From the NCBI GenBank assembly GCA_041486305.1, contig JBGPLG010000009.1, positions 1,639-65,638 of the forward strand: a DNA stretch of 64,000 bases, written 5' to 3'. The position numbers and the translations under genes were made by a program. The notes beneath the pieces were generated by a model. That model was not told the DNA's origin. It ran no database searches and worked only from the letters and a program-made list of their open reading frames with translations. Shown here in pieces: positions 3,070-43,242 of the stretch. Each line of letters begins with the position of its first letter. Within the stretch, counting starts at the first letter, position 1. This DNA comes from Gemmatimonadota bacterium (GTDB lineage Bacteria; Gemmatimonadota; Gemmatimonadetes; Gemmatimonadales; GWC2-71-9).

Positions 3070-3085
3070 AAGACGCTAAGACGCC
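3070..3085 (+). repeat. Octamer repeat family member (AAGACGCT AAGACGCC)
   Basis: Two units directly after the stop at 3068. Confidence 0.55.
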
Positions 3086-3093
3086 GGAAGGTG

Positions 3094-4179
3094 TCAAGCA
3101 GACTTGATCTGAGTCCAGATTTCGTCCCATAACCCGCTCGCCCGGCCGAGATCCTTCTGGATCTCGAGCCGGGCGAGCTCGTTTGCGGACGGATAAGGCA
3201 CCGGGTCCGGGAGCAGCGGCATGGCCGCCTGGTTGGGCGAGCCGTAGCCGGTGGCCGCCGAGATCGCGGCTCCCACGGCGGGCCGGAGAATGTAGTTCAT
3301 GAACTCGTGCGCGGCGCGCGGGTGCGGCGCCGCGGCAGTCACCACCAGCGAATCGATCCACAGGGTGCTTCCCTCGCGCGGGAGGATCCACTCCAGCGCC
3401 GGTTGCTCCCGCCGGGCCTGGGCCGCGTCGCCGTTCCAGAGCTGGGCCAGCCAGACATCCCCGGCGATCAGCTGGGCCTTCACCGGCGCCGAGAGGTAGG
3501 CCTTGAGGTTCTTCTTGGCGGCGATGGCGTCCATGCGGGCCGCCTCCAGCTCGCCCGGGTCGATGGAGTTGATCGAGTGGCCCCGGAGCCGGAGGAAGAC
3601 GCCGATCACGTCCCGGAGATCGTCGAGCATGGTCATCTTGCCCTGCGGCTCCCGCCCCAGGAACACGCCCCAACTCTCCGGAACCGCCGACACCAGATCC
3701 TTCCGCCAGGCAATGCCGGTCATCCCCCACTGCCACGGCACCGTGTATGCGTTCCCGGGGTCGTGCGAAAGGCCGCGGAAGACCGGCGCGATGTTGGAGA
3801 GGTTGGGGAGATACTTGAGTGAGAGCGGCGCCAGGAGGCCGCTCTCCCGGAGCACGGTCATCGCATAGGTCGTCGGCACGACCAGGTCGTATCCGGTGGC
3901 GCCGGCCTGCAGCTTGGCGACCATCTCCTCGCTGCTCTCGAAGGTGTCGTAGGTGACCTTGACCCCGAACTCTTTCTGGAAACCGGAGACCACCTCGGGC
4001 CCGATGTAGTCGGACCAGTTGTAGATGTTGAGCTCCGGCTCCAGGGCACCCAGCTCGGCGCTGCCGGCCCGGGGGCCCGCCGCCCTGCCGCGGCCGCACC
4101 CGTCCAGCAGCGACAGCGCCGGCGCCGCGAGTGAGGCACGAAGGGCCCGCTCCAGGAAGCGTCGACGGGATATGGAAAT
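3094..4179 (-). CDS. potD: Spermidine/putrescine ABC transporter substrate-binding lipoprotein; probable ATT start
   Basis: LNIYNWSDYI, YDTFESSEEM, VPWQWG, PREGSTLWID motifs. The frame extends upstream of the track start (3993) to SRRRFL...LLDGC (Tat motif plus lipobox); AGGAGG lies 7 nt before ATT at 4179. Confidence 0.88.
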   Translation of the reverse strand: MSISRRRFLERALRASLAAPALSLLDGCGRGRAAGPRAGSAELGALEPELNIYNWSDYIGPEVVSGFQKEFGVKVTYDTFESSEEMVAKLQAGATGYDLVVPTTYAMTVLRESGLLAPLSLKYLPNLSNIAPVFRGLSHDPGNAYTVPWQWGMTGIAWRKDLVSAVPESWGVFLGREPQGKMTMLDDLRDVIGVFLRLRGHSINSIDPGELEAARMDAIAAKKNLKAYLSAPVKAQLIAGDVWLAQLWNGDAAQARREQPALEWILPREGSTLWIDSLVVTAAAPHPRAAHEFMNYILRPAVGAAISAATGYGSPNQAAMPLLPDPVPYPSANELARLEIQKDLGRASGLWDEIWTQIKSA

Positions 4180-4192
4180 CCGAATGCCTCCT

Positions 4193-6965: not shown

Positions 6966-7033
6966 GGAGGCGTAACGTGCGCTCTGGACGGGCCTCGGGC
7001 AAGGACCTAGCTTCGGAACTGGAGGTCTCCCCC

Positions 7034-7594: not shown

Positions 7595-9285
7595 AGCCGG
7601 TACAGGACTCGACCTGGGATGCGATCGTCGTCGGCAGCGGCATCAGCGGCGGCTGGGCGGCCAAGGAGCTGGCCGAGCGGGGGCTCCGGACCCTGGTCCT
7701 CGAGGCCGGCCGCGACATCGACCCGGCCACCGACTACGTGGAGCACGTGCAGCCATGGGAAAAGCGGTTCCGGGGCTGGGGAGACCGCAAGGCGATGGAG
7801 CGGGACCAGCATATCCAGAAGAACTGCTATGCCTGTGACGAATGGAGCGGGAAGTTCTTCGTCAACGATCGCGAGAACCCCTACGAATTCGACGCCGACA
7901 AGCCGTTCCACTGGATCCGGGGCCGCCACGTGGGCGGGCGCTCGATCATGTGGGGCCGGCAGGTGTACCGCTGGAGCGACCTCGACTTCGAAGCCAACGC
8001 GCGGGACGGCATCGCGGTCGACTGGCCGATCCGCTACGCCGATATCGCGCCCTGGTACGACCACGTGGAGCGCTTCATCGGCATCAGCGGGCAGAAGGAG
8101 GGGCTGGCCCAGCTCCCCGACGGCCAGTTCCTCCCGCCGATGCAGATGCGGTGCGCGGAGACGCTGGTGCGGGAGAAGCTGATGGCCCGGTGGGGCGGCG
8201 AGCGGGTGCTCACCATCGGACGGTGCGCCATCCTGACCGAGAATCACAACGGCCGCGCCGCCTGTCACTACTGCGGCCCCTGCGAGCGCGGCTGCATCAC
8301 CCATTCGTATTTCACCAGCATCGGCTCCACGCTGCCGGCCGCGCGCGCGACCGGGCGCATGACGCTCCGGCCCAACAGCGTGGTACACAGCCTCATCTAC
8401 GACGAGAAGCGGGACCGCGCCTCTGGCGTTCGGGTCATCGACGCCGTCACCATGCAGGCGCTCGAGTTCCGGGCCCGGGTGATCTTCGTGTGCGCCTCGG
8501 CGCTGGAATCGGCCCGGCTGCTGCTGAACTCGAAGACTCCGCGGTTCGCCACCGGGCTGGGCAACTCCAGCGACCAGCTGGGCCGCAACGTGATGGACCA
8601 TACCTTCGGGGCCGGCGCGAGCGGAGTGATTCCCGGCATGGAAGACAAGACCTCGTACGGCCGGCGCCCCAACGGGATCTATGTCGCCAGGTTCCGCAAC
8701 GTGAAGGAGAAACACCCCGATTTCCTCCGGGGCTATGGATTCCAGGGCGGGGCCTACCGGGAGGGCCCGCCGCGGCCCAAGGCGGGCTTCGGGGCGGACT
8801 TCAAGCAGGAGCTGTTCCGCCACGATCAAGGACCCTGGCACTTCTCGATCGGCGCCTGGGCCGAATGCCTGCCGCGGGAGGACAACCGGATCGAGCTGCA
8901 CCCGACCCTGGTGGACAAGTGGGGCGTGCCGGCGCTCAAGGTGACCTGTACCTGGGGCCCCAACGAGCGCGCGCTGCTCGAGGACGCGCAGAAGACCGCG
9001 ACCGAGATGCTCGAGGCCTCGGGTGCGAGAAACATCAGCACCTACAATGACCATCTGCCCCCGGGACTCTGCATCCACGAGATGGGCACGGCGCGGATGG
9101 GGCGGGACCCAAGGAGCTCCGTGCTCAACCGGAACAACCAGGTCTGGGACGCCAGGAATGTCTTCATCACCGACGGCGCCTGCATGGCGTCCTCGGCCAA
9201 TCAGAATCCTTCCATCACGTACATGGCGCTGACCGCGCGGGCCGCGGCCTTCGCGGTGGATGCGATGAAGCGCAATGCGCTCTAG
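7591..9285 (+). CDS. GMC family FAD oxidoreductase (glycoside 3-dehydrogenase-like large subunit)
   Basis: DAIVVGSGISGGWAAKEL FAD motif; VGGRSIMWGRQ; CHYCGPCERGC Fe-S motif; IHEMGTARMG; NPSITYMAL. Confidence 0.92.
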   Translation: MKPVQDSTWDAIVVGSGISGGWAAKELAERGLRTLVLEAGRDIDPATDYVEHVQPWEKRFRGWGDRKAMERDQHIQKNCYACDEWSGKFFVNDRENPYEFDADKPFHWIRGRHVGGRSIMWGRQVYRWSDLDFEANARDGIAVDWPIRYADIAPWYDHVERFIGISGQKEGLAQLPDGQFLPPMQMRCAETLVREKLMARWGGERVLTIGRCAILTENHNGRAACHYCGPCERGCITHSYFTSIGSTLPAARATGRMTLRPNSVVHSLIYDEKRDRASGVRVIDAVTMQALEFRARVIFVCASALESARLLLNSKTPRFATGLGNSSDQLGRNVMDHTFGAGASGVIPGMEDKTSYGRRPNGIYVARFRNVKEKHPDFLRGYGFQGGAYREGPPRPKAGFGADFKQELFRHDQGPWHFSIGAWAECLPREDNRIELHPTLVDKWGVPALKVTCTWGPNERALLEDAQKTATEMLEASGARNISTYNDHLPPGLCIHEMGTARMGRDPRSSVLNRNNQVWDARNVFITDGACMASSANQNPSITYMALTARAAAFAVDAMKRNAL

Positions 9286-13507: not shown

Positions 13508-14337
13508 AGCCGCACCTCCACGCCGGCAAGCCGGCTCGCGACCGCGGGAATGTCGCCCCGATTGGACAGATCGAGCACCGGCGCTTCCGACTCGATGACC
13601 CGGAAGCGCTCACCCAGAACCTCCATGGCGTACCGTACCGCATCCTGGAGCTCGAGCTCGCCCCGGGGAGACGGGGAGACCGCCCGGCATGCACCGTAGA
13701 TCGTCGGGGGCAGGAGCCAGAGGTTCATGCTGATCAGGGGATTCACACCGAAGCGGCGGCTTTCGAGCTCGCCGGGCTTCTCGATGATTCCCTGCAGAAT
13801 CCCGTCCCCGGTGACCGAGATGAGCGCGAAGGCCCGGATCCGCTCGGGCGGAATGTTGCCGCCGGCGAGCAGCGTCGTCTGACGGAAACCGACCAGGCCG
13901 GCCGGGTGTGACGCACCGGCGCAAGGAGGCAACGACGCCAGGCTCGCGATGGCGGAGCGGGGGTACAGATTGTCCGCGTTGAGCACCAGCACCGACTGGC
14001 CTGCCGCGAACGACTCCGCCGAACCTACCGCGTCGGCGGTGCCGAGCGGTCGCTCCTGGATCGCATAGGAGAGGGCGATCCGGCGGGGACGGGCCGCGCC
14101 GCCGTAGTGCGCCCGGACGGCGTCGTGTTCCGGCCCGATCACCAGGCAGACCGCCTCCAGGCCCGCATCGGCCAGGCCGCTCAGGACGTAGTCCAGGAAG
14201 GGCCGGCCCACCGGAATCATGGCCTTGACGCCCTGGTCGGCCGCGGCCTGCTGGGCCGGATCCAGGGGGGTGCCGGGGTCCGCCTTCCGCATCCTGCTCC
14301 CCAGCCCGCGGGCGAGGATCACCGCCTTCTTGGTCAC
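13504..14337 (-). CDS. Sugar-1-phosphate nucleotidyltransferase (RmlA/GalU-like)
   Basis: GTGA overlap start; KAVILARGLGSRM, QERPLGTADA, SPRGELELQDA. Confidence 0.88.
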   Translation of the reverse strand: MTKKAVILARGLGSRMRKADPGTPLDPAQQAAADQGVKAMIPVGRPFLDYVLSGLADAGLEAVCLVIGPEHDAVRAHYGGAARPRRIALSYAIQERPLGTADAVGSAESFAAGQSVLVLNADNLYPRSAIASLASLPPCAGASHPAGLVGFRQTTLLAGGNIPPERIRAFALISVTGDGILQGIIEKPGELESRRFGVNPLISMNLWLLPPTIYGACRAVSPSPRGELELQDAVRYAMEVLGERFRVIESEAPVLDLSNRGDIPAVASRLAGVEVRL

Positions 14338-16103: not shown

Positions 16104-16118
16104 GCGGGTCCCTTGCTG

Positions 16119-16142
16119 AAGACGCTAAGACGCTAAGACGCT
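16119..16142 (+). repeat. Octamer tandem repeat (AAGACGCT)x3
   Basis: Three perfect units about 15 nt upstream of the symporter start. Confidence 0.9.
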
Positions 16143-16252
16143 GCGGGGTGTCCAAGCTTAGTCCGGGTGGGGACCGGGAGCCAGAGTGGACCCCAAATTG
16201 GGCGTCCGTTTCCAGGTGGCCCGCCGACTGGCGAATCCCTAGCTTCCGGTCC

Positions 16253-17374
16253 ATGATTGCCATCGTGAATCCGATCCGGACCAAGCCCTCAGCGGTGCCC
16301 TACCGCCCCCGAATGCTGCTGCACGGCTCGGCCGAGCTCCACCGGGCCGTGGACGAACGGGACGCCTCCTACGAAGGCCTGTTCCTGGTCGGCGTGAAGA
16401 CCACCCGCATCTTCTGCCGGCCCACCTGCCCTTCCAAGCAGGCCCTCCGGCGAAACCGTGAGTTCTTCGCTACCGCCGGGGACGCCAGCGCGGCCGGTTA
16501 TCGTCCCTGCCTGCGCTGCAAGCCGCTGGAGAAGGCGGGGGAGCACCCTCGCTGGGTGCTGCAGATCATGGGGGCGCTCGATGGCGAGCCCACCAAACGG
16601 CTCACCGACGCCAAGCTGCGCAAGATGGGCATCGTGCCGGCCACCGCGCGGCGCTACTTCATCGGGAGATTCGGTATGACGCTTCACGCCTACGCCCGCG
16701 CCCGGCGGCTCGGTTTCGCGCTCGACCGCCTGCAGCAGGGAAACCCGGTCACGCCGACCGGCTTCGACAGCGGGTTCGAGTCCGACAGCGGGTTTAGAGA
16801 CGCCTTCAAGCGACTCTTCGGACTCAATCCCGGCGAGGCGCGGGGAACCACTCCCATCGTGGCCACTCTGATTCCGAGCCCGCTCGGCCCGCTGCTCGCC
16901 GCAGCGACCGAGGACGGCCTCTGTATGCTGGAGTTCGCCGACCGCGAGAAACTGCCCAAGCAGGCCGCCGACCTGACCCGGTTCTACCGCCGGCCGGTGG
17001 TTCCGGGGCGGAACCAGCACATCGACCGGATCGCCCGGGAGCTCGACGAGTACTTTGCCGGGGAGCGGCAGCAGTTTGACGTGCCGCTGGACCTCAAGGG
17101 TACCGAGTTCCAGGAAAAGGTGTGGAAGGAGCTGGTCAACATCCCGTTCGGCGAGACCATTTCCTACGAGGAGCTGGCCACCCGGATCGGCAAACCGACC
17201 GCCCAGCGGGCCGTGGGACTGGCCAACGGACGGAACCGGATTCCCATCGTGGTGCCCTGCCACCGGGTCATCCAGAAGAACGGCCAGCTTCGAGGCTACG
17301 GCGGAGGTCTCTGGCGGAAGCAGTTCCTGCTGGACCTGGAACTCAAGGCGGCGGGTGTGACACTGGGGATCTGA
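16253..17374 (+). CDS. ada: Bifunctional Ada: Zn/AraC regulator plus O6-methylguanine-DNA methyltransferase
   Basis: FCRPTCPS...YRPCLRC Zn site; AraC HTH with GFESDSGFRDAF; IVVPCHRV active site; TAGCTT-N7-ATG leaderless start. Confidence 0.93.
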   Translation: MIAIVNPIRTKPSAVPYRPRMLLHGSAELHRAVDERDASYEGLFLVGVKTTRIFCRPTCPSKQALRRNREFFATAGDASAAGYRPCLRCKPLEKAGEHPRWVLQIMGALDGEPTKRLTDAKLRKMGIVPATARRYFIGRFGMTLHAYARARRLGFALDRLQQGNPVTPTGFDSGFESDSGFRDAFKRLFGLNPGEARGTTPIVATLIPSPLGPLLAAATEDGLCMLEFADREKLPKQAADLTRFYRRPVVPGRNQHIDRIARELDEYFAGERQQFDVPLDLKGTEFQEKVWKELVNIPFGETISYEELATRIGKPTAQRAVGLANGRNRIPIVVPCHRVIQKNGQLRGYGGGLWRKQFLLDLELKAAGVTLGI

Positions 17375-17452
17375 GGCTACGACGCTACGACGCTAGGACG
17401 CTAGGAACCTGCTCTTTCCTAGCGTCGTAGCGTCCTGGCGTCGTACGTCCTA
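17373..17452. repeat. Inverted pair of octamer arrays between convergent genes (long hairpin, likely terminator-like)
   Basis: GAGGCTAC GACGCTAC GACGCTAG GACGCTAG GAA - loop - TTC CTAGCGTC GTAGCGTC CTGGCGTC GTACGTC. Confidence 0.88.
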
Positions 17453-18337: not shown

Positions 18338-18432
18338 ATTGTGACTCCTCAGTCACGAGAGATTGCGATGGACCGGCGAGAGCGCCTTTACGATGCGGCC
18401 AAGAGGGGCCGGAGGGAAGGGGGTCCCTGATC

Positions 18433-19356: not shown

Positions 19357-21965
19357 GGGGAGGCTTCCTCCGCCCGTTGCAGGAACACCCGCTTGGCTTC
19401 CGCCAGCCGTCCCAACACCTCGGCCTTTTCCGCCGCGTCGTTCCAGCCGGGATGAGCACTCGCCGCGGTCTCGAGCCGCTCGATCCAGCGCACGAACCAG
19501 CGCGCGGACTCGGCCGATCGCACCGCGCGCCCCCCGACCGTCACGTAGATCGGGCTGGTGCTGGCATAGGGGTAGAGATCGAGGACCGGATGGGTGGCCT
19601 TGGCCGACCAGGCCCGCACGATGAACCATCCGCTGCGGGTTACCGGTAGCGGAATCACCGCGTCGGCGCGGGTGCCTCCGTCGGTGAGCGGGATGGGCGC
19701 CACCACCACGCCGTTGGCCACGATTTCGAGGCGCTCGACCGGCACGATCGACCGCAGGGATACCCTCGCCACCACCTGGTGCACCCCGGCCGGGAAGGTC
19801 AGCTCAGCGCCGATCTGCCGGCCGCTCAGGGTGAACCCGAGCAGCGGCCCGTTGGAAACAAAGGTGCGGCCGGCCTTGAGCGCCGCCAGCCAGCTCCGGT
19901 ACACCAGCCTCGGGCCGCTGTGCACGAAGACCCGGTTCATGCCGACCGGACCGCGCAGCGAGGCGAAGTTGGCCATGGCGTCGGTGCCGGCCCCGGCGGG
20001 AATCCTGAATCCGGCATTGAGCAACCGGTACCAGACGCCGGCCGTGGTCCGGTGATCGCTGAAGCCCATCACCTCCATGTAGTCCACCTTGCCCAGGGCC
20101 ACGTCCACCGGCAGGCCGCTGGTGGGCGGGTCGGCCGACTCCGGATCGGGGGCCGGCGGGTCGAACGGATGGACGTAGCCCGACAGGCCCCCCTGGGCGT
20201 GGGAGAGGTCGATGATGGTGGCGTTGTCGGGGTAGAGGCTCGCCGCCGCGGTGTTGGCGTAACCCGCATAGTTGGGGAGGATCAGGTTGCCGGTGAGCCC
20301 CAGGTGCGCCGTGTGCCCCCACCAGCTGGTGTGGTACTCCTCATCATGCGAAATCACGGTGCGGGCGGTGGACACCGGGTCGGGCCGGCCGCGGAACATG
20401 GCCACGTCGGGAATCCGCTGCTCCTTGTTCACGATCAGATCTTCGACCACGTGCAGGTCCTCGGCCTCCGCCTGGCGGCGCAGGTGCGCCGGATCGTTGC
20501 GGTAGGCGCCGCCGTAGTTCATGTGCACGTGGAGGTCCCCGCTCCACCAGCCTGCGGCCGGGAGGTCGAGCAGACGGGCCAGCCGGACGCGTTCCACCCT
20601 CCGGGCGCCCGATACAACCGACACCTTGCGTACCACCCTCGCGAATTCCAGGCCCTTGGTGACCTCGACCGTATAGTCGCCCGCGGGGAGCGTCAGCGTC
20701 GCGGTGCCGGTGGCATGAAAGTAGGTAACCTCGTACTTCCGTTCCCCCCGGTCGAACCCGTCATCGGCGTGGCGCCACGCCGTGTCGGGCGCCCAGCCAC
20801 GACCGTCCCCGCCGGTCACCGACACCCGAGCCGGCGTGCGCCCGCCGGTGGCATCGTCGAGCCGGATGGTAAGGGTTCCCGCGGGATGGAGCCGGTGCAG
20901 CACCGTGGCGCGCACCGTCTCGATGGCGCCGCCCGGTACGGTCACCACCGCCAGCGAGGTATTGCCGTTCTGATTGCTGATGAACGCGATCCGGCGTCCC
21001 TCGGGAGACCAGCGCGGTGCGGTGTGGTCGCAGTCGCAGTAGGTAAGCTGGAGCGGATCTCCTCCCGCGGCGGTGGTGAGCCAGAGGTGGTTGCGCTGGC
21101 TGCCGAGGTAGGAACTGTACACCACCCGCCTGCCGTCCCGGGACCAGTCCGGATGGGCTTTCCAGTTGGTCTCTTCGCTCCGGATTTCGCGCATCGGCGC
21201 GCCCGGGAGCGCGTCCATGCGCCAGAGCCCTCCCGATCCCCAGACGTGGCCCCGATTGGACACCAGAATCAGCTCGCTGCCATCGGGTGACCAGGCGGGC
21301 GAGAGGTAGTGGTCGAACCCGGAGTAGTAGTAGCGGGTGGACGAGGTCGAGGTATCGGTCGTGATCCGGACCCTGCCCCGCGACAGCGAGTTCGGTGAGG
21401 ACGGGAACGCCGCCAGGGGCTCCGAGGACGGTGGAGACATCAGGTATCGGGCATCGGCCAGGTACAGGTGCCAGCGGCCCTCGTACTCGGTGGAGACGTA
21501 GGCGATCCGGGTGCCGTCGGGAGACCAGCGCGGATCCAGGTTGACGGCTCCGTTGACCACCAGCGGGCGGGACCTGCCGTCCCGGGTGTCGAACATCCAC
21601 AACTCCAGGGCGTCGTTCCGGTACGACGTGTAGACGATGTACCTCCCGTCGGGCGACCAGTCGGGCTGGTAATCGTATCCGGGTCCGTCGGTGAGCTGGG
21701 TCGCCTCGGTGCTGCCGACCCGCTGGCGCCAGAGGGAGCCCTGCATCGAATACGCCAGCTCGGTCCCGTCAGGTGACCAGGCCACCGAGGAGGGTCCGCT
21801 GGTGGCCTGCGGCAGGTACATCTCGCGGTAGTAGTAGTTGTGCGGGACGGCGATCTGCTGGAGCACGGGGGCGCGCTGCGCGGACGCTACGATGGTAACA
21901 CGCAATGACGCGAGGAGGACGAGGCTACAAGGGCGCAGGGACGGGAGAACACGAGATGAGTGCAC
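19353..21965 (-). CDS. Exported TolB-like PD40 propeller fused to a CehA/McbA (PHP-like) metallohydrolase
   Basis: Multiple WSPDG repeats; WWSGDLHVH, YVHPF, GAGTDA, GRTFVSNGP. Confidence 0.85.
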   Translation of the reverse strand: MHSSRVLPSLRPCSLVLLASLRVTIVASAQRAPVLQQIAVPHNYYYREMYLPQATSGPSSVAWSPDGTELAYSMQGSLWRQRVGSTEATQLTDGPGYDYQPDWSPDGRYIVYTSYRNDALELWMFDTRDGRSRPLVVNGAVNLDPRWSPDGTRIAYVSTEYEGRWHLYLADARYLMSPPSSEPLAAFPSSPNSLSRGRVRITTDTSTSSTRYYYSGFDHYLSPAWSPDGSELILVSNRGHVWGSGGLWRMDALPGAPMREIRSEETNWKAHPDWSRDGRRVVYSSYLGSQRNHLWLTTAAGGDPLQLTYCDCDHTAPRWSPEGRRIAFISNQNGNTSLAVVTVPGGAIETVRATVLHRLHPAGTLTIRLDDATGGRTPARVSVTGGDGRGWAPDTAWRHADDGFDRGERKYEVTYFHATGTATLTLPAGDYTVEVTKGLEFARVVRKVSVVSGARRVERVRLARLLDLPAAGWWSGDLHVHMNYGGAYRNDPAHLRRQAEAEDLHVVEDLIVNKEQRIPDVAMFRGRPDPVSTARTVISHDEEYHTSWWGHTAHLGLTGNLILPNYAGYANTAAASLYPDNATIIDLSHAQGGLSGYVHPFDPPAPDPESADPPTSGLPVDVALGKVDYMEVMGFSDHRTTAGVWYRLLNAGFRIPAGAGTDAMANFASLRGPVGMNRVFVHSGPRLVYRSWLAALKAGRTFVSNGPLLGFTLSGRQIGAELTFPAGVHQVVARVSLRSIVPVERLEIVANGVVVAPIPLTDGGTRADAVIPLPVTRSGWFIVRAWSAKATHPVLDLYPYASTSPIYVTVGGRAVRSAESARWFVRWIERLETAASAHPGWNDAAEKAEVLGRLAEAKRVFLQRAEEASP

Positions 21966-22005
21966 TTAGCGTCCTAGCGTCTTCGCGTCGTAGCGTCTTT
22001 GCGTC
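21966..22005 (-). repeat. Five octamer units filling the entire intergenic gap
   Basis: TTAGCGTC CTAGCGTC TTCGCGTC GTAGCGTC TTTGCGTC on the + strand. Confidence 0.88.
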
Positions 22006-23331: not shown

Positions 23332-23372
23332 GTTTCGAACTCCATGGTGTAACCGGTCACCGGCACCTGCGA

Positions 23373-33900: not shown

Positions 33901-34036
33901 GCCCGCCCCGGTTCGGGCCGATGTTGCGCCAGCTCATCCCCTTGAACAGGGTGGAATCGAACCCCTGGGCGGACAGCGCCCGGACCAACGTGAAGGCGAG
34001 CAACGCTGGCAACGGCGCCGAGCGGCGGAATGGCAT
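30920..34036 (-). CDS. Exported Vps10/BNR (Asp-box) beta-propeller protein, paralog 1
   Basis: Signal peptide; WRNIGPNRGGR; many SxDGGxTW boxes; GSQQDN; ATHGRS; WDLRY; helical C-terminus. Confidence 0.88.
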   Translation of the reverse strand: MPFRRSAPLPALLAFTLVRALSAQGFDSTLFKGMSWRNIGPNRGGRSTAVTGIPSRPNEYYFGAVGGGLWKTTDGGTSWRPVTDGQIRSSSVGAVGVSESNPDVVYIGMGETEFRGNIMQGDGVYRSGDAGKTWTRAGLDRVQAIARVRVDRVNPDLVYVAAFGKPYAPSPERGVYRSKDAGRTWERVLFRNDSTAAVDLTIDRNNGNVLYAALWQAYRTPWTMSSGGAGSGLFKSVDGGDSWTELTRNPGLPKGIIGKIGVAVSPAVPGRVWAIVENDDGGVFRSDDGGATWKRTNADRKLRQRAFYYSRIYADPKDKDRVYVLNTTMFRSDDGGVTFNGVPDPHGDNHDLWIDPNDTQRIANASDGGGSVSLNGGRTWTSIMYPTAQAYHVTTTREVPYHVCGSQQDNSTFCVASSWSVPWTQLYNSSGDFFYHVSGGESGYIAPDPRNPDVFFAGSQGALLTRYDRSNGENRDVQIYPRFFSGEPASSLPERWQWTFPIVFSPVDPNVLFASSQHLFRTTTDGQSWERISPDLTRADPKTLGLSGGPITHDMNGPEIYGTIFTVAPSFQELNTIWTGSDDGVAHISRDGGKTWTNITPPALPGFSRISLIEAGRFEVCTAYLAAKRYQLDDRAPYIFRTHDCGKTWQRTVTGIRADDYVHAVREDPKRKGLLYAGAEHGVYVSWDDGDHWQSLSLNLPDVQVPDLVVEEHDLVIATHGRSMWLLEGITPLREMTAEVAGADVYLFKPAPAIRSLSGARFNYALKKAADTLSIEILDAGGQVIRRYVGAPADTARARADSVRLRGMGCDVRPFRPPTPPREAGLNSFEWDLRYPGSVTFDCLIFWGGSPDFGPAAPPGQYQVRLTAGGKTLTRPFDVRRDPRLKHATDADLAARFTLARQIQEKENLGNGAVLTIRRLREAVDDRVARAPPLARQGELFKAKLTALEEELYQTRSRSGQDLLNYPIQLTDRIAALRSSVEGGDARPTDASVVVFRELSTELDQKLARLQSLLTVDLAAFNRALAGRNVATIPPSAL

Positions 34037-34049
34037 CGGGACCTCGCAG

Positions 34050-34079
34050 GAGGCTAAGACGCTGAGACGCTACGATGGC
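34050..34079 (+). repeat. Octamer array GAGGCTAA GACGCTGA GACGCTAC GATGGC
   Basis: About 13 nt upstream of the Vps10 paralog 1 start. Confidence 0.8.
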
Positions 34080-34166
34080 GCCCGGAACCTACTGGATGGC
34101 GCGCGGGCCCGTCCAGAGCGGAGCTCCCGGCTTGCCACTCCGCCGCCGGAGCCCAATCTTCCGAAC

Positions 34167-34832
34167 ATGTTCATCGGACATTTCGCGGTCGGATTCGCCG
34201 CCAAGCGCTGGGCCCGGGAAGCGCCACTCGGCGTGCTCCTGTTGGCACCGCTGCTGCTCGACGTGCTCTGGCCGGTGTTCTGCCTGGTCGGCATCGAGCA
34301 GTACCGGATCCTCCCCGAGGGTGGACCTTTCACCCGGCTGGAGTTCATCAGCTACCCGTGGTCGCACAGCCTGGCGATGTCGATCGTCTGGGGTCTGCTG
34401 CTGGGGGCCTTGTGGCGGTTCCGGGGAGGCAGCGGACGCAGCGCCGCCCTTCTCGCCGCCCTGGTGATGAGCCACTGGGTGCTCGACTGGGTCACCCACC
34501 TGCCCGACCTGCCGCTGTGGCCGCCCCGAGGGCCGCGCCTGGGGTTGGGGTTGTGGAATTCCGTCGCGGGGACCGTTACGGTCGAGTCGCTGATGCTGGC
34601 GGGCGGCGCATGGCTCTACTTCTCCGCTACCCGGGCCAAGGGGCATATCGGCAGGATCGGACCGTGGGCTTATCTCGCGCTGCTCGCCACGCTCTACGTG
34701 GCAAGCGTCGCCGGGCCCCCGCCCCCGGTCGGGGCGGAGCGGCTGGTCTCGATCGTGGCATTGGTCTTCGTGCTGCTGGTGCCCCTGGCTTCGTGGATCG
34801 ACGGGCACCGGCAGTCTACGGCGGCGGGCTAG
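34167..34832 (+). CDS. Membrane metal-dependent hydrolase (YdjM-like)
   Basis: MFIGHF, YPWSHSL, SHWVLDWVTHLPDL, LGLGLWNS; TTGCCA-N17-AATCTT-N6-ATG promoter. Confidence 0.85.
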   Translation: MFIGHFAVGFAAKRWAREAPLGVLLLAPLLLDVLWPVFCLVGIEQYRILPEGGPFTRLEFISYPWSHSLAMSIVWGLLLGALWRFRGGSGRSAALLAALVMSHWVLDWVTHLPDLPLWPPRGPRLGLGLWNSVAGTVTVESLMLAGGAWLYFSATRAKGHIGRIGPWAYLALLATLYVASVAGPPPPVGAERLVSIVALVFVLLVPLASWIDGHRQSTAAG

Positions 34833-35005
34833 GTGGCGGGCGGATCCTTCGAGCGAGTCTTGCCGACTCCCTTCAGGATGCCGAGGCCGAGAAGAATCGT
34901 GCAGGTAATGGCGATCCAGACGGTCGGGATCCCGGCCCTGGACATGCCCCAGGCCACTCCCGCGATGACGATGACGAAGCCGATGACATACAGCATGAAA
35001 GACAT
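34829..35005 (-). CDS. Small two-TM membrane protein
   Basis: MSFMLYVIGFVIVIAGVAWG...WIAITCTILLGLGILKGVGKTRSKDPPAT; start could be 35017. Confidence 0.7.
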   Translation of the reverse strand: MSFMLYVIGFVIVIAGVAWGMSRAGIPTVWIAITCTILLGLGILKGVGKTRSKDPPAT

Positions 35006-35090
35006 GAAAAGCCTCATGGGCTGATAGATCAGTACGGCACCCGGTGGGTCCGTACCTGGTAGTGACGACCGCCGAGTATTATCAGCCACC

Positions 35091-36038: not shown

Positions 36039-36044
36039 ACGCGA

Positions 36045-36078
36045 CGAGGCCCCGCCGGCCGCTGCCGGCGGGGCCTCG
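36045..36078. terminator. GC-rich 15-bp hairpin between convergent genes
   Basis: CGAGGCCCCGCCGGC-CGCT-GCCGGCGGGGCCTCG; no U-tract. Confidence 0.7.
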
Positions 36079-36101
36079 CGACACCGATCGACTTCGTCAG
36101 C

Positions 36102-37760: not shown

Positions 37761-38198
37761 TCAGGCCCGGAGGTAGTCGGGTCGCCACGCCGTGACGGCG
37801 GCCTTGATGTCTTTGCGGGAGACGATCTCCCCGGCCAGGATGCGGTCGACCAGGCCGGCCACCTCGGCATCGGGGGCAAACCGGAGACCCACCAGGTGAT
37901 CGCGGGAGAGCCGTGCGATGTCGGCGCCCCGGGCCGGCATCAGCCGGGTGAGCCGGAGAGTTTCTTCGAGCCGGATGACCCGGTCCTGCACGGTCAGGGC
38001 CATCCGGCGCAGGAAGACCGCGGCCGTTCCCAGCGCCAGGGCCACCACCGCCCCCCAGGCACTCGCCGCGCCCGGTGCGCGGACCGCGGCCACGATCTGC
38101 ACGATCACGTTGATCAGGAGCACCGGTAGCACGAAGAAATGGAATGCCGGCACGTAGCGGGCGTGGTTGGCGTGGGACTGCGGGGGGGTGTCGGACAT
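37761..38198 (-). CDS. DUF6526-like membrane protein
   Basis: QSHANHARYVPAFHF, QDRVIRLEE, GLRFAPDAE, IKAAVTAWRPDYLRA. Confidence 0.8.
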   Translation of the reverse strand: MSDTPPQSHANHARYVPAFHFFVLPVLLINVIVQIVAAVRAPGAASAWGAVVALALGTAAVFLRRMALTVQDRVIRLEETLRLTRLMPARGADIARLSRDHLVGLRFAPDAEVAGLVDRILAGEIVSRKDIKAAVTAWRPDYLRA

Positions 38199-38212
38199 AG
38201 GGCCTGTCTTCA

Positions 38213-38268
38213 GGTGAGAAGTGAGAGGTGACCGGTGACCGGTGACCGGTGACCGGTGACCGGTGACC
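38213..38268 (+). repeat. Heptamer tandem repeat (GGTGACC)x6 preceded by two degenerate units
   Basis: GGTGAGA AGTGAGA, then six perfect GGTGACC units at 38227-38268. Confidence 0.92.
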
Positions 38269-38274
38269 AGTTTC

Positions 38275-38298
38275 TTAGCGTCTTAGCGTCTTAGCCTC
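38275..38298 (-). repeat. Octamer array encoding the permease C-terminus and stop
   Basis: TTAGCGTC TTAGCGTC TTAGCCTC on +, which reads EAKTLRR* on -. Confidence 0.88.
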
Positions 38299-39651
38299 TT
38301 TCGTGAAATACCAGTAGAGTGGCAGGCCCGCCACGAGCAGGCCCGCGCCGATCAGGGAGAACTTGGGCTGCGCGATGATCGAGTTCACGATCAGATATGC
38401 CGAGAACAGGATGAAGACCACCGGCGTCACCGGATAGCCCCAGGCGCGATAGGGCCGGGCCAGCCCGGGCTCCTGGCGCCGCAGCACGATGACGGCGATG
38501 CAGGACAGCGAATAGAAGAGAAACGATACGAAGACCATGCAGGTGATCAGGTCATTGTAGGTGCCCAGCAGCACCAGGAGGGACGACCAGATCCCTTGCG
38601 CGATGAGTGCGGTATTCGGAGTCGCGTACTTTGGGTGCAGCCGGGAGGCCCAGGAGAAGAACTGCCCCTCGCGGGCCATGGCCCAGGGAATCCGGGCGGC
38701 GGTAAAGACGATGCCGTGATTGGAACCCAGGGTGGAGACCAGCACGGCGACCGTGATGAAGGCGGCGCCTCCGGTGCCCAGCACCACGCGCATGGCGTCG
38801 GCCGCGACCAGCGGGGACTGGGCGGCCCCCTCCCGCCCCAGCACGTAGAGAATCGCGAGGCTCACCCCGACGTACAGCACGCTCACCAACACCGTCGAGA
38901 GGAGGATCGAGCGCGGCATGTCTCGGGCGGGATTCCGCATCTCGCTGCCCACGTAAGTGATCTCGATCCACCCATCGTAGCCCCACAACACCGCAATCAT
39001 CGCGACCCCGAACGGCCCGATGAGCGACGTCACCGGCTCGGCGGGCCAGAGCGGCTGAAAGTTGTGGACGGCACCGCCGGGCAACAGGAGGCAGAGCGCG
39101 ACCAGGGCGATCACCGCCGCGATCTTGACGAGGGTGACCACGTTCTGGGTGACCGCGCCGACCTTGAGGCCAAAACAGTTGATGAGCGTGAGCAGGAGGA
39201 TCGAGCCGATGGCCACCACCTTGATGGCCGCCGACGAGAGGGGCAGGAAGAACCCCATGTAGGTGGCGAACCCCACCGCGATCGCGGCGATCGAGGCGGG
39301 GTTGATCACCACCGAGCTGCCCCAGCCGTAGAGGTAGCCCCAGACCGGCCCGAAGGCCCGCTGCAGGTAGATGAACTGCCCGCCGGCCTTGGGCATCGCG
39401 GCGCCGAGCTCGGCGATACACAGCGCACCACACAGCGAGATCACCGCCCCCACCACCCAGACGAGGATGGTCGGAAACGACGCGGTGAACGCGGCCGCGA
39501 TGGCGCTGGGCACGATGAAGATCGACGAGGCGATGATGGTCCCGACATTGATCATCGTCGCGTCGAGCAGGCCCAGCTCGCGGCACAAGCCGTCCTCCCC
39601 GCGGGTACCAGCGGGCACGGGCTGGTGCGGAAGTGTCTGGGTGGAGGCCAT
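38275..39651 (-). CDS. APC family amino acid permease (LAT-like)
   Basis: RELGLLDATMINVGTIIASSIF, AELGAAMPKAGG, WGYDGW, EMRNPARDMP, RPYRAWGYP. Confidence 0.93.
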   Translation of the reverse strand: MASTQTLPHQPVPAGTRGEDGLCRELGLLDATMINVGTIIASSIFIVPSAIAAAFTASFPTILVWVVGAVISLCGALCIAELGAAMPKAGGQFIYLQRAFGPVWGYLYGWGSSVVINPASIAAIAVGFATYMGFFLPLSSAAIKVVAIGSILLLTLINCFGLKVGAVTQNVVTLVKIAAVIALVALCLLLPGGAVHNFQPLWPAEPVTSLIGPFGVAMIAVLWGYDGWIEITYVGSEMRNPARDMPRSILLSTVLVSVLYVGVSLAILYVLGREGAAQSPLVAADAMRVVLGTGGAAFITVAVLVSTLGSNHGIVFTAARIPWAMAREGQFFSWASRLHPKYATPNTALIAQGIWSSLLVLLGTYNDLITCMVFVSFLFYSLSCIAVIVLRRQEPGLARPYRAWGYPVTPVVFILFSAYLIVNSIIAQPKFSLIGAGLLVAGLPLYWYFTKEAKTLRR

Positions 39652-39783
39652 CGGGTTCACCAAGCTACCGCCTGACCACGCCCGCCGGAAGCCGGGCGCG
39701 GGTGGCTCGGCCGCGGTACCGGGGCTATCCTATCTCGCGACCGCCGCTCGCCGCTCGACCACCCGTAACCGGATCATCGCCCG

Positions 39784-42700
39784 ATGAAAAGCGCCGCCAC
39801 CGGCCTGCTGCTCCTGCTCGCCCTGCCCGTCCCGGGGACCTCCCAGGGGGCGCCGGCCCGCGCACCCGTCCGTCGTCCCGCCACGACGGCGCCCGTCCCC
39901 GCCCCGGCGCCGGCCCCGGCGCGGACCGACTCGGCGACCGGCGGGCGCCAGGCCGCTCCCGACCACCGACCGGCTGCGCCCGGGGGTATTCGGTGGGCTC
40001 CGGGTCCGGAGCATCGGTCCCGCAGCACCGTCGGGAAGGATCGGGGAGGTCGCCGTGCACCCGTCGGCGAAGAGCACCTGGTACGTCGCGGTGCACTCGG
40101 GCGGCGTGTGGAAGACCGTCAACGCCGGCACCACGTGGACGCCGGTCTTCGACACCCAGGGCGCCTACTCGATCGGCACCGTGGCGATCGATCCGAACAA
40201 TCCCCTGGTGGTATGGGTAGGCACCGGCGAGAACAACTCGCAGCGCAGCGTCGGCTATGGCGACGGCGTCTACAAGTCCACCGACGGTGGCCGCAACTGG
40301 ACCAATGTCGGGCTCAAGGCGTCCAACCACATCGGCAAGATCCTGATCGACCCCCGCCACAGCGATGTCGTATACGTCTCCGCCGAGGGACCGCTCTGGT
40401 CCGCGGGGGGTGACCGCGGGGTCTACAAGACCGGGGACGGCGGGAAGACCTGGACCCTGTCGCTCAAAGGCGACGACTGGACCGGCGCCTACGACATGCA
40501 GATGGATCCCCGGAATCCCGACGTGCTCTACGCCTCGACCTGGCAGCGGACCCGGCGGCAGTGGGGATTCATCGACGGCGGCCCGGGGTCCGCCCTCTGG
40601 AAGTCGGTCGACGCCGGCGCCACCTGGACCAAGCTGACCCGCGGGCTTCCCCCCGAGGAGATGGGCAAGATCGGGCTGGCGGTCTCACCCGCGAATCCGA
40701 ACATCGTGTACGCCCAGATCGAGGCGGCCAACCGGGCCGGGGGATTCTTCCGCTCGGTGGACGCCGGGCAGAACTGGGAGCGGATGAATCCCGCGGTGGC
40801 GGGACCGCCGTTCTACTACCACAAACTGTTCGCCGACCCCAAGGATCCCGACCGGGTCTACGCGATGAACGTCCAGCTCCAGGTGACCGAAGACGGAGGC
40901 CGGACCTTCCGCTCGATCCAGGGGCGCTCCACCCATGTGGACAATCACGCGCTGTGGATCGATCCCGACGATACCGGGCACATCCTCTCGGGCAACGACG
41001 GCGGCCTGTACGAGACGTTCGACCGGGGCGCCACCTGGATGTACGTGGCCAACCTTCCCCTGGTGCAGTTCTACAAGGTGGACGTGGCCCAGAGCGAGAG
41101 CCCGTTCTACCTGGTCTGCGGCGGCACCCAGGACAACAATTCCGTCTGCGGCCCATCGGGCACCCGGAGCCAGCACGGCATCGCCAACGCCGACTGGTTC
41201 ATCACCACCGGTGGCGACGGATTCACCAGCAAGATCGACTGGCAGGACTCCAACACCCTGTACGCCGAGTCGCAGCACGGCGAGATGGTCCGCTACGACC
41301 GGACCACCGGGGGGCGGATCGGGATCCAGCCCCAGCCGGAGAAAGGAGACTCGGCGCTGCGCTGGCACTGGGACTCGCCGCTCATCATCAGCCCCCATTC
41401 GCACACCCGCCTCTACTTCGGGTCCCAGCGGTTGTTCCGGAGCGAGGACCGTGGCGACAGCTGGAAGGCGATCAGCGGGGACCTGAGCCGCCAGATCGAC
41501 CGCAACAAGCTCAAGATGATGGGCCGGGTATGGAGCGTCGACGCCGTGGCCAAGAACACCTCGACGTCCTTCTTCGGGACGATCGTGTCCCTGGCGGAGT
41601 CGCCGACCAAGGAAGGCCTGCTCTACGCCGGCACCGACGACGGGGCGCTGAACGTCACGGAGGACGGGGGCACCACCTGGCGCAAGATCGAGCATTTCGC
41701 CGGCGTGCCGGACACCACCTTCGTCTCGAACGTCACCCCGTCGCGTCATGACGCGAATACGGTCTATGCGTCCTTCGACAATCACAAGGCGGGAGACTTC
41801 AAGCCCTATCTGCTCAAGAGCACCGACCAGGGGCGGAGCTGGACCTCCGTCGCCGGGAATCTTCCAGAGCGCGGGTCGGTCCTGGCGATCGCCGAGGACC
41901 ACGTGAACCCGAGCCTGCTCTTCGCCGGCACCGAGTTCGGCGCCTTCTTCACGGTGGACGGCGGGAAGAAGTGGATCAAGCTGGCCGGCCTCCCCACGAT
42001 CCCGGTGCGGGACATCGCGATCCACCGCAAGAACAACGACCTGGTCCTGGCCACCTTCGGCCGGGGCTTCTACGTCCTGGACGATTACTCCCCGCTGCGG
42101 GACGCCGCCAAGACGGTCGAGCAGCGATCCGCGCTGCTGCCGGTGGCCGATGCATCGATGTACCTCGAGGCCTCGCCCTTGGGCGGCGGTCCCCGCGGGG
42201 CGCAGGGCGACGCGCTCTACACCGCCCGGAATCCGGCCTTCGGCGCGACGTTCACCTGGTTCATGCGGAGCGAGCTGCGAACCCGGCGCGCCAGGCGGCT
42301 CGCCGCCGAGAAGTCCGCCGCCGGCAAGGGAGAGGACGTGTTCTACCCGCCACTCGACAGCCTCCGGGCCGAGGATCGCGAGGAGGCGCCGGCGGTGATG
42401 CTCACCGTGGCGGATGAGCAGGGCAACGTGGTCCGGAGAATCAGCGGTCCGACCGGGAGCGGCTTCCAGCGCGTCACCTGGGATTTCCGCTATCCCGCCT
42501 CGACCCCGGTCACGTCGCTCACGCCGCCGCAGCGCGGCGGAGACGACGACGGCGGATTCACCGGTCCGTCGGGACCGATGGCGGTACCGGACACCTACAA
42601 GGTGACGCTCTCGATCCGGCAGGACGGGCGGGAGACGGTGGTGGGCTCGCAGACCTTCAAGGCGTCGCCGCTGGGCCAGGGCCCCCTCTCGGCGCCCGAT

Positions 42701-43165
42701 CGCGCGGCTGTGGCCGCGTTCCACCAGCAGACCGCGCGGCTGCAGCGCGCGGCGATGGGCACCAACGCGGCCCTCGCCGAGGCGGACACCCGGCTGCAGC
42801 TGCTGCGCCGGGCCATCGATGCGACACCGGCCGCGCCGGCGCTGGCCGACCGGGCCCGGGCGCTCAACCAGCGGCTCCGTGCCCTGCGCACCGAGATGGA
42901 CGGAGACAACGTGATCGCCGGCGAGAACGAGCCCACGCCGCCGACCCTGATCGACCGGATTCAGCGCGTGGTCCAGAACACCTGGGCCACGGTCTCGGCC
43001 CCGACGGCCACCCATCGCCGGAACTACCAGATCGCGTCCGACGAGCTGGCGGAGCTCCTGCCGCGCTTCCGGGCGTTCCTGGACGATCAGAAGAAGTTGG
43101 AGGACGACGCCGAGGCGGCGGGCGCACCGTGGACGCCCGGCAGGGTGCCGGCGTGGAAGCCGTGA
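39784..43165 (+). pseudogene. Vps10/BNR propeller paralog 2 with a +1 frameshift near 39900-39980 (pseudogene, programmed shift or sequence error)
   Basis: Signal peptide MKSAATGLLLLLALP is in the frame of 39784; conserved VFGGLRVRSIGPAAPSGRI and the 1036-aa body are in another frame with no canonical start before 40055. Confidence 0.75.
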
Positions 43166-43168
43166 CTA

Positions 43169-43240
43169 GAGGCTAAGAGGCTAAGGCGGTAGGAGGCTAG
43201 GAAACTACTTAGCCTCTTAGCGTCTTAGCCTCTTAGCCTC
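43169..43240. repeat. Inverted octamer arrays (4 + 1 spacer unit + 4) between convergent genes
   Basis: GAGGCTAA GAGGCTAA GGCGGTAG GAGGCTAG GAAACTAC TTAGCCTC TTAGCGTC TTAGCCTC TTAGCCTC. Confidence 0.92.
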
Positions 43241-43242
43241 CA

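Follow-up and report, generated by a model that had tools for sequence, protein, structure and literature searches.

What are the short tandem arrays that stand at one gene end after another in this DNA, and where do they come from? The stretch in question, called the window here, comprises 64,000 nt of contig JBGPLG010000009.1 of the Gemmatimonadota bacterium assembly GCA_041486305.1 (G000:C9:1639-65638, where G000 denotes the genome carrying the window). An initial annotation had described at least seven arrays of the octamer GASGCTAV at its gene boundaries, and had offered as readings an element resembling repetitive extragenic palindromes (REP) or short tandemly repeated repetitive (STRR) sequences, a scar of cargo once flanked by inverted repeats, or a signal for binding and translational insulation. 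We find that the window arrays are members of the repeat family that makes up the arms of a small cassette with a four-helix-bundle gene. This cassette was inserted immediately behind a stop codon, and gene-less arrays of a given unit occur where a cassette of that unit occurs.

A four-helix-bundle cassette with octamer arms

The genome G000 is a draft of 4.72 Mb in 211 contigs with 68.5% GC. It holds 587 exact octamer units, and the reversed pattern, used as a control, has no match. Allowing one mismatch per unit and requiring at least two units, we obtained 157 arrays, of which 77 are on the + and 80 on the - strand; three and four units are the commonest sizes (43 arrays each) and the largest array has 15. 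The enrichment and polarity noticed in the window hold genome-wide. A stricter set, in which the last unit position was left free and a quality filter was applied, retained 115 arrays with 507 units at 84 loci, of which 2-3 are counted twice owing to contig-end overlaps (C39/C144 and C54/C134).

The initial annotation had suggested looking for arms that flank a small cargo gene, and one such copy exists, outside the window, at G000:C28:7701-8188. Its + arm (7701-7732) and - arm (8157-8188) enclose 424 nt, inside which we found a gene that the gene caller had missed (7762-8070, - strand). The 120-aa product matches TIGR02436, "four helix bundle protein", with 82 bits and PF05635 with 89 bits, and its closest solved structure is 2gsc_A, XCC0516 of Xanthomonas campestris (E 6e-18). 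The element has an ABC-2 permease gene on one side and the next protein gene on the other, and is not in a 23S rRNA helix. The absence of a cognate gene from the window, as first described, is thus correct, the cognate gene being on another contig; none of the seven window loci has an open reading frame (ORF) between its arms. Among the 15 pairs of neighbouring arrays that are 131-5000 nt apart, only the C28 pair encloses DNA without an ordinary gene, and composite elements with larger cargo were rejected, as the 14 other wide pairs enclose ordinary genes.

The bracketing of such a gene by inverted repeats is not peculiar to C28. All four PF05635 genes of G000 are bracketed by inverted arms, each of its own repeat family: the octamer at C28, GGGAGGW/CCTCCCT heptamers at C83, and nonamers at C148 (GAGGACGGT/ACCGTCCTC) and C113 (CAGGGCGGG/GCCCGCCCT). 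All four families are additionally dispersed across the genome. About three quarters of the four-helix-bundle genes in the genus are likewise bracketed by a 7-9-nt inverted repeat of their own. Specifically, we examined 84 PF05635 loci in 17 genomes (4 in G000 and 80 in 16 other genus genomes) with Tandem Repeats Finder (TRF), counting arms as matching when the consensus units of the two sides were reverse complements and at least 75% alike; 64 of the 84 have matching arms, and the others comprise 4 two-sided unmatched loci, 14 one-sided loci (2 of them at contig ends) and 2 without repeats. As a control, the same test on 4031 G000 genes, taken from a crude codon log-odds gene caller that yields 91% coding sequence, gave 8 positives, one being a four-helix-bundle gene.

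With somewhat better than even confidence, we propose that the GASGCTAV arrays, whether single arms or pairs, are gene-less copies of the inverted repeats at the ends of a single family of small cassettes. When complete, such a cassette would consist of (GASGCTAV)n, a four-helix-bundle gene (PF05635/TIGR02436, Avd-like, "23S rRNA intervening-sequence protein") and the reverse complement of the array. Among the readings first offered, the scar of inverted-repeat-flanked cargo fits best, given the full C28 copy and the 64 of 84 bracketed loci; an STRR-like non-autonomous element also fits, with tandem 8-nt units at many intergenic loci and in fixed polarity.

Cassette insertion and repeat dialects in the genus

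The comparison within the genus covered 26 genomes, including G009, which has 0 octamer matches. The generic pattern (GASGCNAN)x3 is present in 14 of them and heavy in 12, with 28-274 matches each and none for the reversed control. Outside the genus, a draw of 401 genomes from the phylum (G212, for example, with 5 matches) gave low counts only, at most 28, with GC-richer units. The share of matches having T at position 6 (T6) differs between genomes: 164 of 223 in G000, 213 of 274 in G002, 113 of 178 in G008, 35 of 66 in G020, 48 of 116 in G006, 9 of 28 in G015, 28 of 30 in G004 (all GAGGCTAG), 2 of 97 in G010, and 0 of 167, 128, 111 and 44 in G011, G013, G024 and G023, respectively. The T6-free genomes use units GACGCAAA or GACGCAAG.

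The C28 cassette locus has orthologues in G002, G006, G008, G011, G020, G023 and G024, which with G000 makes eight carriers. The arms are built from GACGCTAC in G000, GACGCTAA/GACGCTAC in G002, 13 units of GACGCAAG in G006, 15 of GACGCAAA in G011, 10 of GACGCGGG in G024, and GAGGCAAG in G023. The dialect of the cassette arms is that of the dispersed arrays in G000, G002, G011, G013, G015 and G004, and partly so in G006 and G023. The gene is intact in six genomes (120-123 aa, 62-83% identity) and is thus maintained. At the same site the gene is truncated in G010 and G013, and what is left in G015 is a 187-nt remnant that contains two or three GACGCAAG units. A correlation between protein residues and repeat dialect was sought among the six orthologous proteins and was inseparable from phylogeny.

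Ten genomes show the ABC-2 junction empty (G004, G007, G009, G016, G017, G018, G019, G021, G022 and G041; G009 was judged from alignment coordinates only). Here the aligned flanks are 21-160 nt apart, and stop and start are separated by 4-30 nt where the sequence was read, as in G022 (TAG CGCG ATG). In G000 the insertion point reads TAA, then arm to arm, then GCGCCC TTG. No target-site duplication was seen when filled and empty sites were compared. The empty-site genomes have no octamer family except G004, which has only (GAGGCTAG)n arrays; it possesses its own cassette at another locus, with (GAGGCTAG)n arms and a paralogue only 32-37% identical. In G012 the cassette site (G012:C37:3615-3733, L128) is gene-free and occupied by a single arm made of GTGAAAA/GGTGAGA units; another repeat family has therefore colonised the same post-stop spot.

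Two further families offer tests that are less entangled with phylogeny. The pattern (AATGGGC)x3 occurs in only two of the 26 genomes, G011 (39 matches on many contigs) and G023 (5), and no others have cassettes armed with AATGGGC. For (GGTGAGA)x3 the highest counts are those of G012 (182), G023 (132), G004 (81) and G018 (36), the last three of which hold a matching cassette. PF05635 as such is present in 22 of the 26 genomes, including octamer-free ones, and its mere presence was rejected as an octamer marker; only the paralogue with octamer arms tracks octamers.

The window arrays and their orthologous sites

All seven arrays listed at first are present in the window, by unit search, TRF and sequence inspection, and all lie in gaps between genes. 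The window contains 28 exact matches to GASGCTAV, against 6.01±2.23 in 100 dinucleotide-preserving shuffles (maximum 11), none of which reached 28. TRF reports period-8 arrays at 16119-16142, 17376-17403, 17417-17452, 21965-22006, 34053-34072, 38273-38300, 43169-43202 and 43208-43240. The flanking genes are unrelated housekeeping genes, namely for a solute-binding protein, a symporter, an Ada-type methyltransferase, an aminotransferase, two BNR/sortilin-like proteins, a permease and an amidohydrolase.

The possibility that the arrays are assembly artefacts is contradicted by Logan contigs of independent metagenome runs, which span 16119-16142 (X1, X2, X3) and 21860-22012 (X1, X3) with no indel listed. 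None of the listed contigs bridges the hairpin at 17373-17452, and two end at 17402. A search of RNA runs for positions 14001-24000 of the window listed none that contains this stretch. Contig joints between arrays, such as 16142 to 17411, look like graph cross-links between repeats and were not taken as biology.

Synteny links the window to G015:C1 and to contigs of G002, G006, G008 and G020. At orthologous gaps the arrays are mostly retained, each in the local dialect, and empty sites are also found. The short array at 3070..3091 (+; about 2.5 units, GAAGACGCTAAGACGCCGGAAG) starts 1 nt past the TAG stop (3066-3068) of gene 2421-3068 and occupies the 25-nt gap before the convergent solute-binding-protein gene 3094-3993(-). 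The same site has four units in G008, a decayed A6-type array in G015 and, in G020, another repeat that is 9-mer-like. G000 and G015 have the last partial unit in common and differ in the inner units (T6 vs A6); the change therefore took place in situ.

At 16119..16142 (+), a single arm of three GACGCTAA-type units lies in a divergent gap of 44 nt, bounded by the start of the symporter gene (16103, -) and that of the Ada-like gene (GTG 16148, or 16253). The site is occupied in all five relatives, with 5 units in G002, 12 in G006, 3 in G008 (GACGCAAR), seven of GACGCAAA in G015 and a GACAGACT-type repeat in G020. Behind the Ada-like gene stands an arm pair. The first GA of its four-unit left arm (17373..17404, +) is the GA of the TGA stop (17372-17374), and the right arm (17419..17452, -), with three good units and decayed ones, reaches the stop (17450-17452) of the convergent gene 17450-18337(-). 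The 14-nt centre at 17405..17418, GAACCTGCTCTTTC, recurs identically at G000:C40:3049-3062, and its G020 orthologue is GAACCGGCTCTTTC. More distant genomes have GACGCAAN (G011), GAGGCAAG (G010), GGGAGCTC (G041) or G/A-rich heptamers (G024) at this site, and six have a plain GC hairpin. A unit at 17292, within the Ada-like gene, is a chance occurrence.

Two degenerate copies had also been noticed, at 21883 and 36028, and only the former is real. It is a decayed + arm (21883..21928) adjoining the start of gene 19353-21866(-), and partners the five-unit arm at 21966..22005 (-), which stands in sense orientation directly past the TGA stop (22006-22008) of the aminotransferase gene 22006-23331(-). 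The two-arm layout recurs in all four aligned relatives (G002, G006, G008 and G015). The unit at 36028 is a chance single unit and was rejected as an array; it forms the last codons and stop of a 2-hydroxyacid dehydrogenase gene and is coding in all four aligned relatives. Past it, between convergent genes, is an ordinary GC-rich terminator hairpin (36040-36080, GGCCCCGCCGG...CCGGCGGGGCC), conserved in four relatives, an example of an array-free gene end in the window.

The single arm at 34050..34073 (+, three units) is 13 nt from the start (34036) of a BNR/sortilin-like gene, 30920-34036(-); on its other side an ATG (34075) is 1 nt away. At this site G015 has (GGACGCAA)x6, G020 a GTCGGTAA-type repeat, G008 a decayed array and G006 none. 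The approximately 1 kb that follows (34075-35090) has no confident gene, only three overlapping ORFs of 130-239 aa on both strands with no Pfam match. The two divergent gaps of the window are nearly all array: the starts are apparently 44 and 38 nt apart (16104-16147 and 34037-34074, with putative starts GTG 16148 and ATG 34075), leaving no space for two ordinary promoters.

The single arm at 38275..38298 (-, three units) coincides with the end of the amino-acid permease gene 38275-39660(-): the final seven codons of the gene come from the array, and the TAA of the third unit serves as the stop. The gene has other ends in relatives; the array thus rewrote the permease C-terminus. G006, G008 and G020 have arrays here, and none is recognisable in G015. 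Directly downstream on the mRNA strand, in the gap between the permease gene and a DUF6526 gene, is an array of another family, (GGTCACC)x6 at 38227..38268 (-; GGTGACC on the + strand; TRF 6.0 copies, 100% matches), and G010 has a four-helix-bundle cassette (L078) whose arms are of the GTGACCG/GGTCACC type.

The last locus is a pair. Its left arm (43169..43200, +; four GAGGCTAA-type units, one decayed) begins 3 nt past the TGA stop (43163-43165) of the BNR/sortilin-like gene 40055-43165, and its right arm (43209..43240, -; four units) lies 2 nt from the stop of the amidohydrolase gene 43243-44928(-), with the centre at 43201-43208. Arm pairs also occur here in G002, G008 and G015 (GACGCAAG arms), and G006 is empty, with a 36-nt gap. 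The two BNR/sortilin-Vps10-like genes, 30920-34036(-) and 40055-43165(+), are paralogues of about 1037 aa with an array at one end each.

Across these sites the arrays hold their position from species to species while the unit changes genome by genome, that is, they undergo concerted evolution.

Gene-less copies of a cassette or arrays first

How far do these observations carry the proposal that the arrays are gene-less cassette copies? Several points weigh against it. Only 1 of about 84 octamer loci in G000 bears the gene, and the gene-less centres share at most GAAA with the cassette interior and are therefore not recognisable as deletion derivatives. Arrays are many in G013 (128 matches) and G010 (97) despite the truncated gene, and G012 has no cassette matching its GGTGAGA repeats among its 6 PF05635 loci. 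Octamer carriers are mostly the closest relatives of one another, so cassette presence and array abundance are not independent. The match of dialects is equally expected where homogenisation acts genome-wide and treats the cassette arms as just another locus. To our knowledge, the four-helix-bundle protein has no catalytic or sequence-specific activity beyond the nucleic-acid binding of Avd. The mirroring of the C/G subtype at position 3 between paired arms, in 66 of 78 comparisons (chance 0.68±0.04; reached in 0 of 2000 partner shuffles), speaks for the proposal, but complementarity at position 8 is at chance (24 of 78 vs 0.32); the stems are thus 7-bp helices with frequent single mismatches, and the hairpin is not finely maintained. 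Finally, gene positions rest on the crude gene caller and on a 211-contig draft that the arrays themselves break.

Several of these points would suit a different order of events, in which the arrays came first, as long-unit microsatellites born of slippage and homogenised by ectopic gene conversion, and the cassettes land in array hairpins or acquire the local repeat. We hold this to be unlikely, if the strongest of the rivals. It accommodates the excess of loci over cassettes (84 vs 1 in G000), the persistence of arrays beside a truncated gene in G010 and G013, the gene-free arm of another family at the cassette site of G012 together with its 182 GGTGAGA matches, and the turnover of units in place at 3070 between G000 and G015, which requires no fresh insertion. 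However, the empty ABC-2 junctions lack both arms and gene, which argues that the two appear together; the units are specific to the paralogue, with matching arms at 64 of 84 loci; and AATGGGC arrays are confined to the two genomes having that cassette.

Under the proposal that the arrays are gene-less cassette copies, they would be a repeat family of selfish or near-neutral character whose members are kept similar in each genome either by a four-helix-bundle protein that reads its own flanking repeat or by recombination between arrays. Their accumulation behind stops would reflect where a 91%-coding genome tolerates insertions and slippage growth. A bolder version is possible, if doubtful: each four-helix-bundle (Avd-like) protein would be a sequence-specific reader and propagator of its own 7-9-nt repeat, re-templating about 100 arrays from the master copy. 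The reader would possibly be a pentamer with one subunit per unit, which would fit array sizes of 3-5 units.

Position, polarity and folding of the arrays

Genome-wide, the arrays avoid coding sequence and follow stops: in this 91%-coding genome, 101 of 106 filtered arrays overlap coding sequence by at most 30%. For 79 of the 107 arrays with a gene to either side, the 5' neighbour ends in a stop on the same strand, and 73 of these 79 start at most 16 nt from it (median 0), offsets of -8, -2, -1 and 0 being frequent, so that the first unit contains the stop or abuts it. The polarity first described, GASGCTAV behind stop codons in the sense strand, is thus borne out. On the 3' side a gene is within 16 nt in just 11 of 107 arrays, and the 5' gene is the nearer one in 89 of 107. 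A start codon on the 5' side is seen in 28 of 107 arrays (11 of them within 16 nt), many of which are second arms of pairs. The complementary claim, that the reverse complement precedes start codons, therefore holds for 16119 and 34050 and describes a minority genome-wide.

Arms at most 130 nt apart form 28 pairs in the order +- (GASGCTAV, then its reverse complement) and none in the order -+. This strict arm order accounts for most of the observed polarity, because in a convergent gap it puts each arm in sense orientation behind its own gene. Convergent gaps are indeed enriched (about 25 of 79 loci vs 471 of 3820 gaps), and divergent gaps hold seven loci, including 16119 and 34050. A contig end is at most 400 nt away for 11 of the 115 arrays, where 3.6% would be expected; the arrays thus break the assembly, and their real number is higher. 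Two contig ends (C25:76-195 and C30:236-323) share 324 nt at 97.8% identity and carry arrays of 15 and 11 units in different order, which may be strain variants in the bin or paralogous loci. The (CCCTCCT)n arrays of G000, for example on C47 near 26926-26949, are polar as well and often lie in convergent gaps, with the C-rich strand mRNA-sense behind the stop in 16 of 20 intergenic arrays that have a 5' gene. Rho prefers C-rich, G-poor RNA.

The commonest of the 507 units are GACGCTAC (158), GACGCTAA (75), GACGCTAG (69) and GAGGCTAA (49). Arrays show a gradient, the outer, gene-proximal units being GAGGCTAA-like and the inner ones GACGCTAC-like; G at position 3 accounts for 42% of first units and for 8-26% of the second and third. 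Many arrays close with a unit ending in G, and GAAA comes next in 27 of 115.

Arm pairs are very stable when folded, at -50 to -68 kcal/mol with z-scores of -7 to -11.6. The pair at 17366-17458 gives -55.7 kcal/mol on the + strand and -49.8 on the - strand (z -7.8 and -7.1), and that at 43160-43250 gives -68.4/-52.7 kcal/mol (z -11.6); the partly decayed site 21883-22005 folds weakly (z -1.7). Single arms do not fold (z +0.28, for 16119..16142, and -0.91). The pair centres are 14-114 nt long and mutually unrelated except for one shared 14-mer. In 11 of 25 centres a GC-rich hairpin folds by itself at -12 kcal/mol or below, some of these being flanked by A and T runs (GAAAAAGGAACCCC...GGGGTTCTTTC) and resembling a bidirectional intrinsic terminator; the remaining centres are unstructured and 14-25 nt long. 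The arm-pair hairpins themselves have no T run, an intrinsic terminator being a GC-rich hairpin followed by a U run. Rfam gave no match on the window at the gathering threshold, and on L041 (E up to 0.1) only sub-threshold miRNA-precursor models on the arm pair, as for any long hairpin.

The pairs would thus form long RNA/DNA hairpins, often wrapping an ordinary GC-rich terminator stem, with the single arms left unstructured. By analogy with the stems of rRNA intervening sequences, which behave in this way, the pairs probably act as terminator extensions or as targets of a double-strand RNase of the RNase III type.

Considering this geometry, it might be asked whether the arrays are elements of gene 3' ends selected by the host, the pairs serving as bidirectional terminators, mRNA stabilisers or RNase III sites, and the single arms as sites of a host RNA- or DNA-binding factor whose drifting specificity drags the unit along. 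We consider this improbable. The tight spacing behind stops (73 of 79 within 16 nt), the enrichment in convergent gaps, the very stable hairpins, the terminator-like cores with A/T flanks (11 of 25 pairs) and the conservation of sites across species are all in its favour, and E. coli REPs within 15 nt of a stop were reportedly described by Liang et al. in 2015 as lowering translation through ribosome stalling. Nevertheless, about half of the genus is array-free and has plain GC hairpins at the same gene ends; the single arms are unstructured (z about 0), and divergent gaps such as 16119 and 34050 are also filled. Profile searches for PUF, PPR and mTERF-type binders found 0 matches in G000, which says little, as the control genomes were equally silent.

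Stop codons in the arrays

The initial annotation had reasoned that three consensus units place stops in all six frames, and had proposed translational insulation as a possible purpose. The former is true of the consensus and not of the real arrays: among 106 arrays of at least three units, all three sense frames are closed in 23 and none in 5, and all three antisense frames are closed in 73. As a purpose, insulation is thus unsupported. An insulator would act as an all-frame stop ladder for ribosomes that have read through or shifted frame, in a high-GC genome where off-frame stops are scarce. TAA or TAG does arise wherever a unit ends in A or G, the outer, stop-proximal units are richer in A (37% at the first), and the antisense closure would also suit the idea; but the commonest unit, GACGCTAC (158 of 507), contains no sense-strand stop, and the relatives' dialects GACGCAAA and GACGCAAG contain no TAA/TAG. 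We regard this explanation as very improbable.

Discussion

The octamer arrays have the hallmarks of dispersed long-unit simple sequence repeats or STRR sequences: head-to-tail units at many loci, an excess in non-coding DNA and a fixed polarity. STRR heptamers of heterocystous cyanobacteria are of the same kind. Among published families, Xanthomonas GGGAATC and Nostoc GGGGA(C/T)T are dispersed long-unit repeats, whose arrays, according to the accessible text of Rehm et al. (2015; PMC4692102), are nearer to the ORF on their own 5' side whatever its orientation, often lie less than 50 bp from a coding-strand stop or overlap it, prefer four units and generally show no association with mobile elements. 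As far as the accessible reports go, the TAACTGA repeats of Beggiatoaceae (PMC4679880) and the four-heptanucleotide (H4) elements of Geobacter metallireducens (PMC2700814) also belong here. The octamer arrays resemble what these reports describe for Xanthomonas and Nostoc in having tandem 7-8-nt units at many intergenic loci, about four units most commonly, ordinary neighbour genes and the 5'-side ORF rule. They differ in that the unit is an octamer, is not G-rich and has no quadruplex potential, and in that about a third of the loci are hairpin-forming arm pairs; furthermore, compared with the portions of those reports available, a cognate gene-bearing copy is identified here and concerted unit change is documented at orthologous sites.

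The cassette itself recalls the intervening sequences of 23S rRNA. In Coxiella, an S23p/PF05635 ORF lies between inverted repeats whose stem is cut by RNase III, and tandem GACAGAT heptamers of strain-variable copy number stand beside the ORF; the available text of Warrier et al. (2016; PMC4990558), which also cites Ralph & McClelland (1993) for the Leptospira counterpart, sees the element as selfish and its mobility as unknown. As in the portrait given there, the C28 element encloses an ORF of the PF05635 type, about 120 aa long, within inverted end-repeats capable of a long stem. Unlike it, the cassette lies between protein-coding genes after a stop, its arms consist wholly of tandem units, and gene-less arms are in about 80-fold excess. 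Our literature search, which left most subscription journals and supplements outside its coverage, found no paper tying dispersed tandem repeats to PF05635 cassettes beyond these Coxiella heptamers.

A comparison with REPs and their REP-associated tyrosine transposases (RAYTs) is instructive. Both systems have one repeat-flanked gene copy, many extragenic gene-less copies, often as inverted pairs, and a family-specific pairing of gene and repeat; here, however, the gene encodes a small helical bundle without known enzymatic activity in place of a Y1 transposase, and the repeat comes as tandem units, where a REP is one imperfect palindrome. That the arrays belong to a REP/REPIN-RAYT system proper, or are classical MITEs (miniature transposable elements with inverted repeats) moved by a transposase encoded elsewhere, is highly unlikely. 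The extragenic sites, inverted pairs, species-specific sequence and a GTAG in the reverse-complement unit would agree with it. Yet PF01797 (Y1/RAYT) has no match in G000, G002, G006, G008, G011 or G013, and among the 12 octamer carriers G020 alone has one; the three matching genus genomes of the 26 (G007, G018, G020) do not track the carriers, and the control search was positive in 6 of 14 known genomes. The REP-like part of the original proposal is thus not upheld: a REP unit is an imperfect palindrome of 20-40 nt, and the unit here is an 8-nt direct repeat whose single arms are unfolded. The MITE was rejected as well, arm length and centre differing from locus to locus with no target-site duplication visible.

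Inverted pairs at terminators are also typical of DNA-uptake sequences. Signals of that type, spread by biased uptake and recombination with dialects as in Neisseriaceae, could account for genome-specific dialects at conserved sites, but tandem arrays, strict +- geometry, stop anchoring and the cassette link are not features of uptake signals, and the idea carries hardly any probability.

PF05635 resembles the Avd protein of diversity-generating retroelements (DGRs; PDB 2GSC vs 4DWL), according to the accessible text of PMC10053308, and the C28 protein falls in the same protein family. Unlike DGRs, G000 has no DGR-type reverse transcriptase and no template/variable repeat pair, and DGR-like templating was rejected, as the sole RVT_1 gene is retron-like, on another contig and not beside any cassette. 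This reverse transcriptase gene (G000:C108:5283-5816, L135) scores 166 bits as retron St85-like (cut-off 235), has an upstream helix-turn-helix gene and a downstream AbiEi-like gene, and on this sequence context is probably a defence retron.

In practical terms, the arrays define or rewrite gene ends and break short-read assemblies, and they fill entire intergenic gaps, including divergent ones, which affects the annotation of promoters and terminators in Gemmatimonadota-type genomes. A known but unexplained kind of repeat is now tied to a specific gene. In the accessible reports, the earlier 7-9-nt families of cyanobacteria, Xanthomonas, Geobacter and Beggiatoaceae are catalogued without an assigned origin or function. 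One family is now linked to a small gene, with empty and filled sites, paralogue-specific repeats and species dialects, which makes it experimentally approachable. The finding also bears on the nature of the very common TIGR02436/PF05635 proteins and of rRNA intervening sequences. If the four-helix-bundle protein does read and propagate its own repeat, this would be a new gene-and-repeat system, an analogue of RAYT-REP without a known nuclease or transposase, and would explain the genome dialects together with the STRR, Xanthomonas and Geobacter heptamer families.

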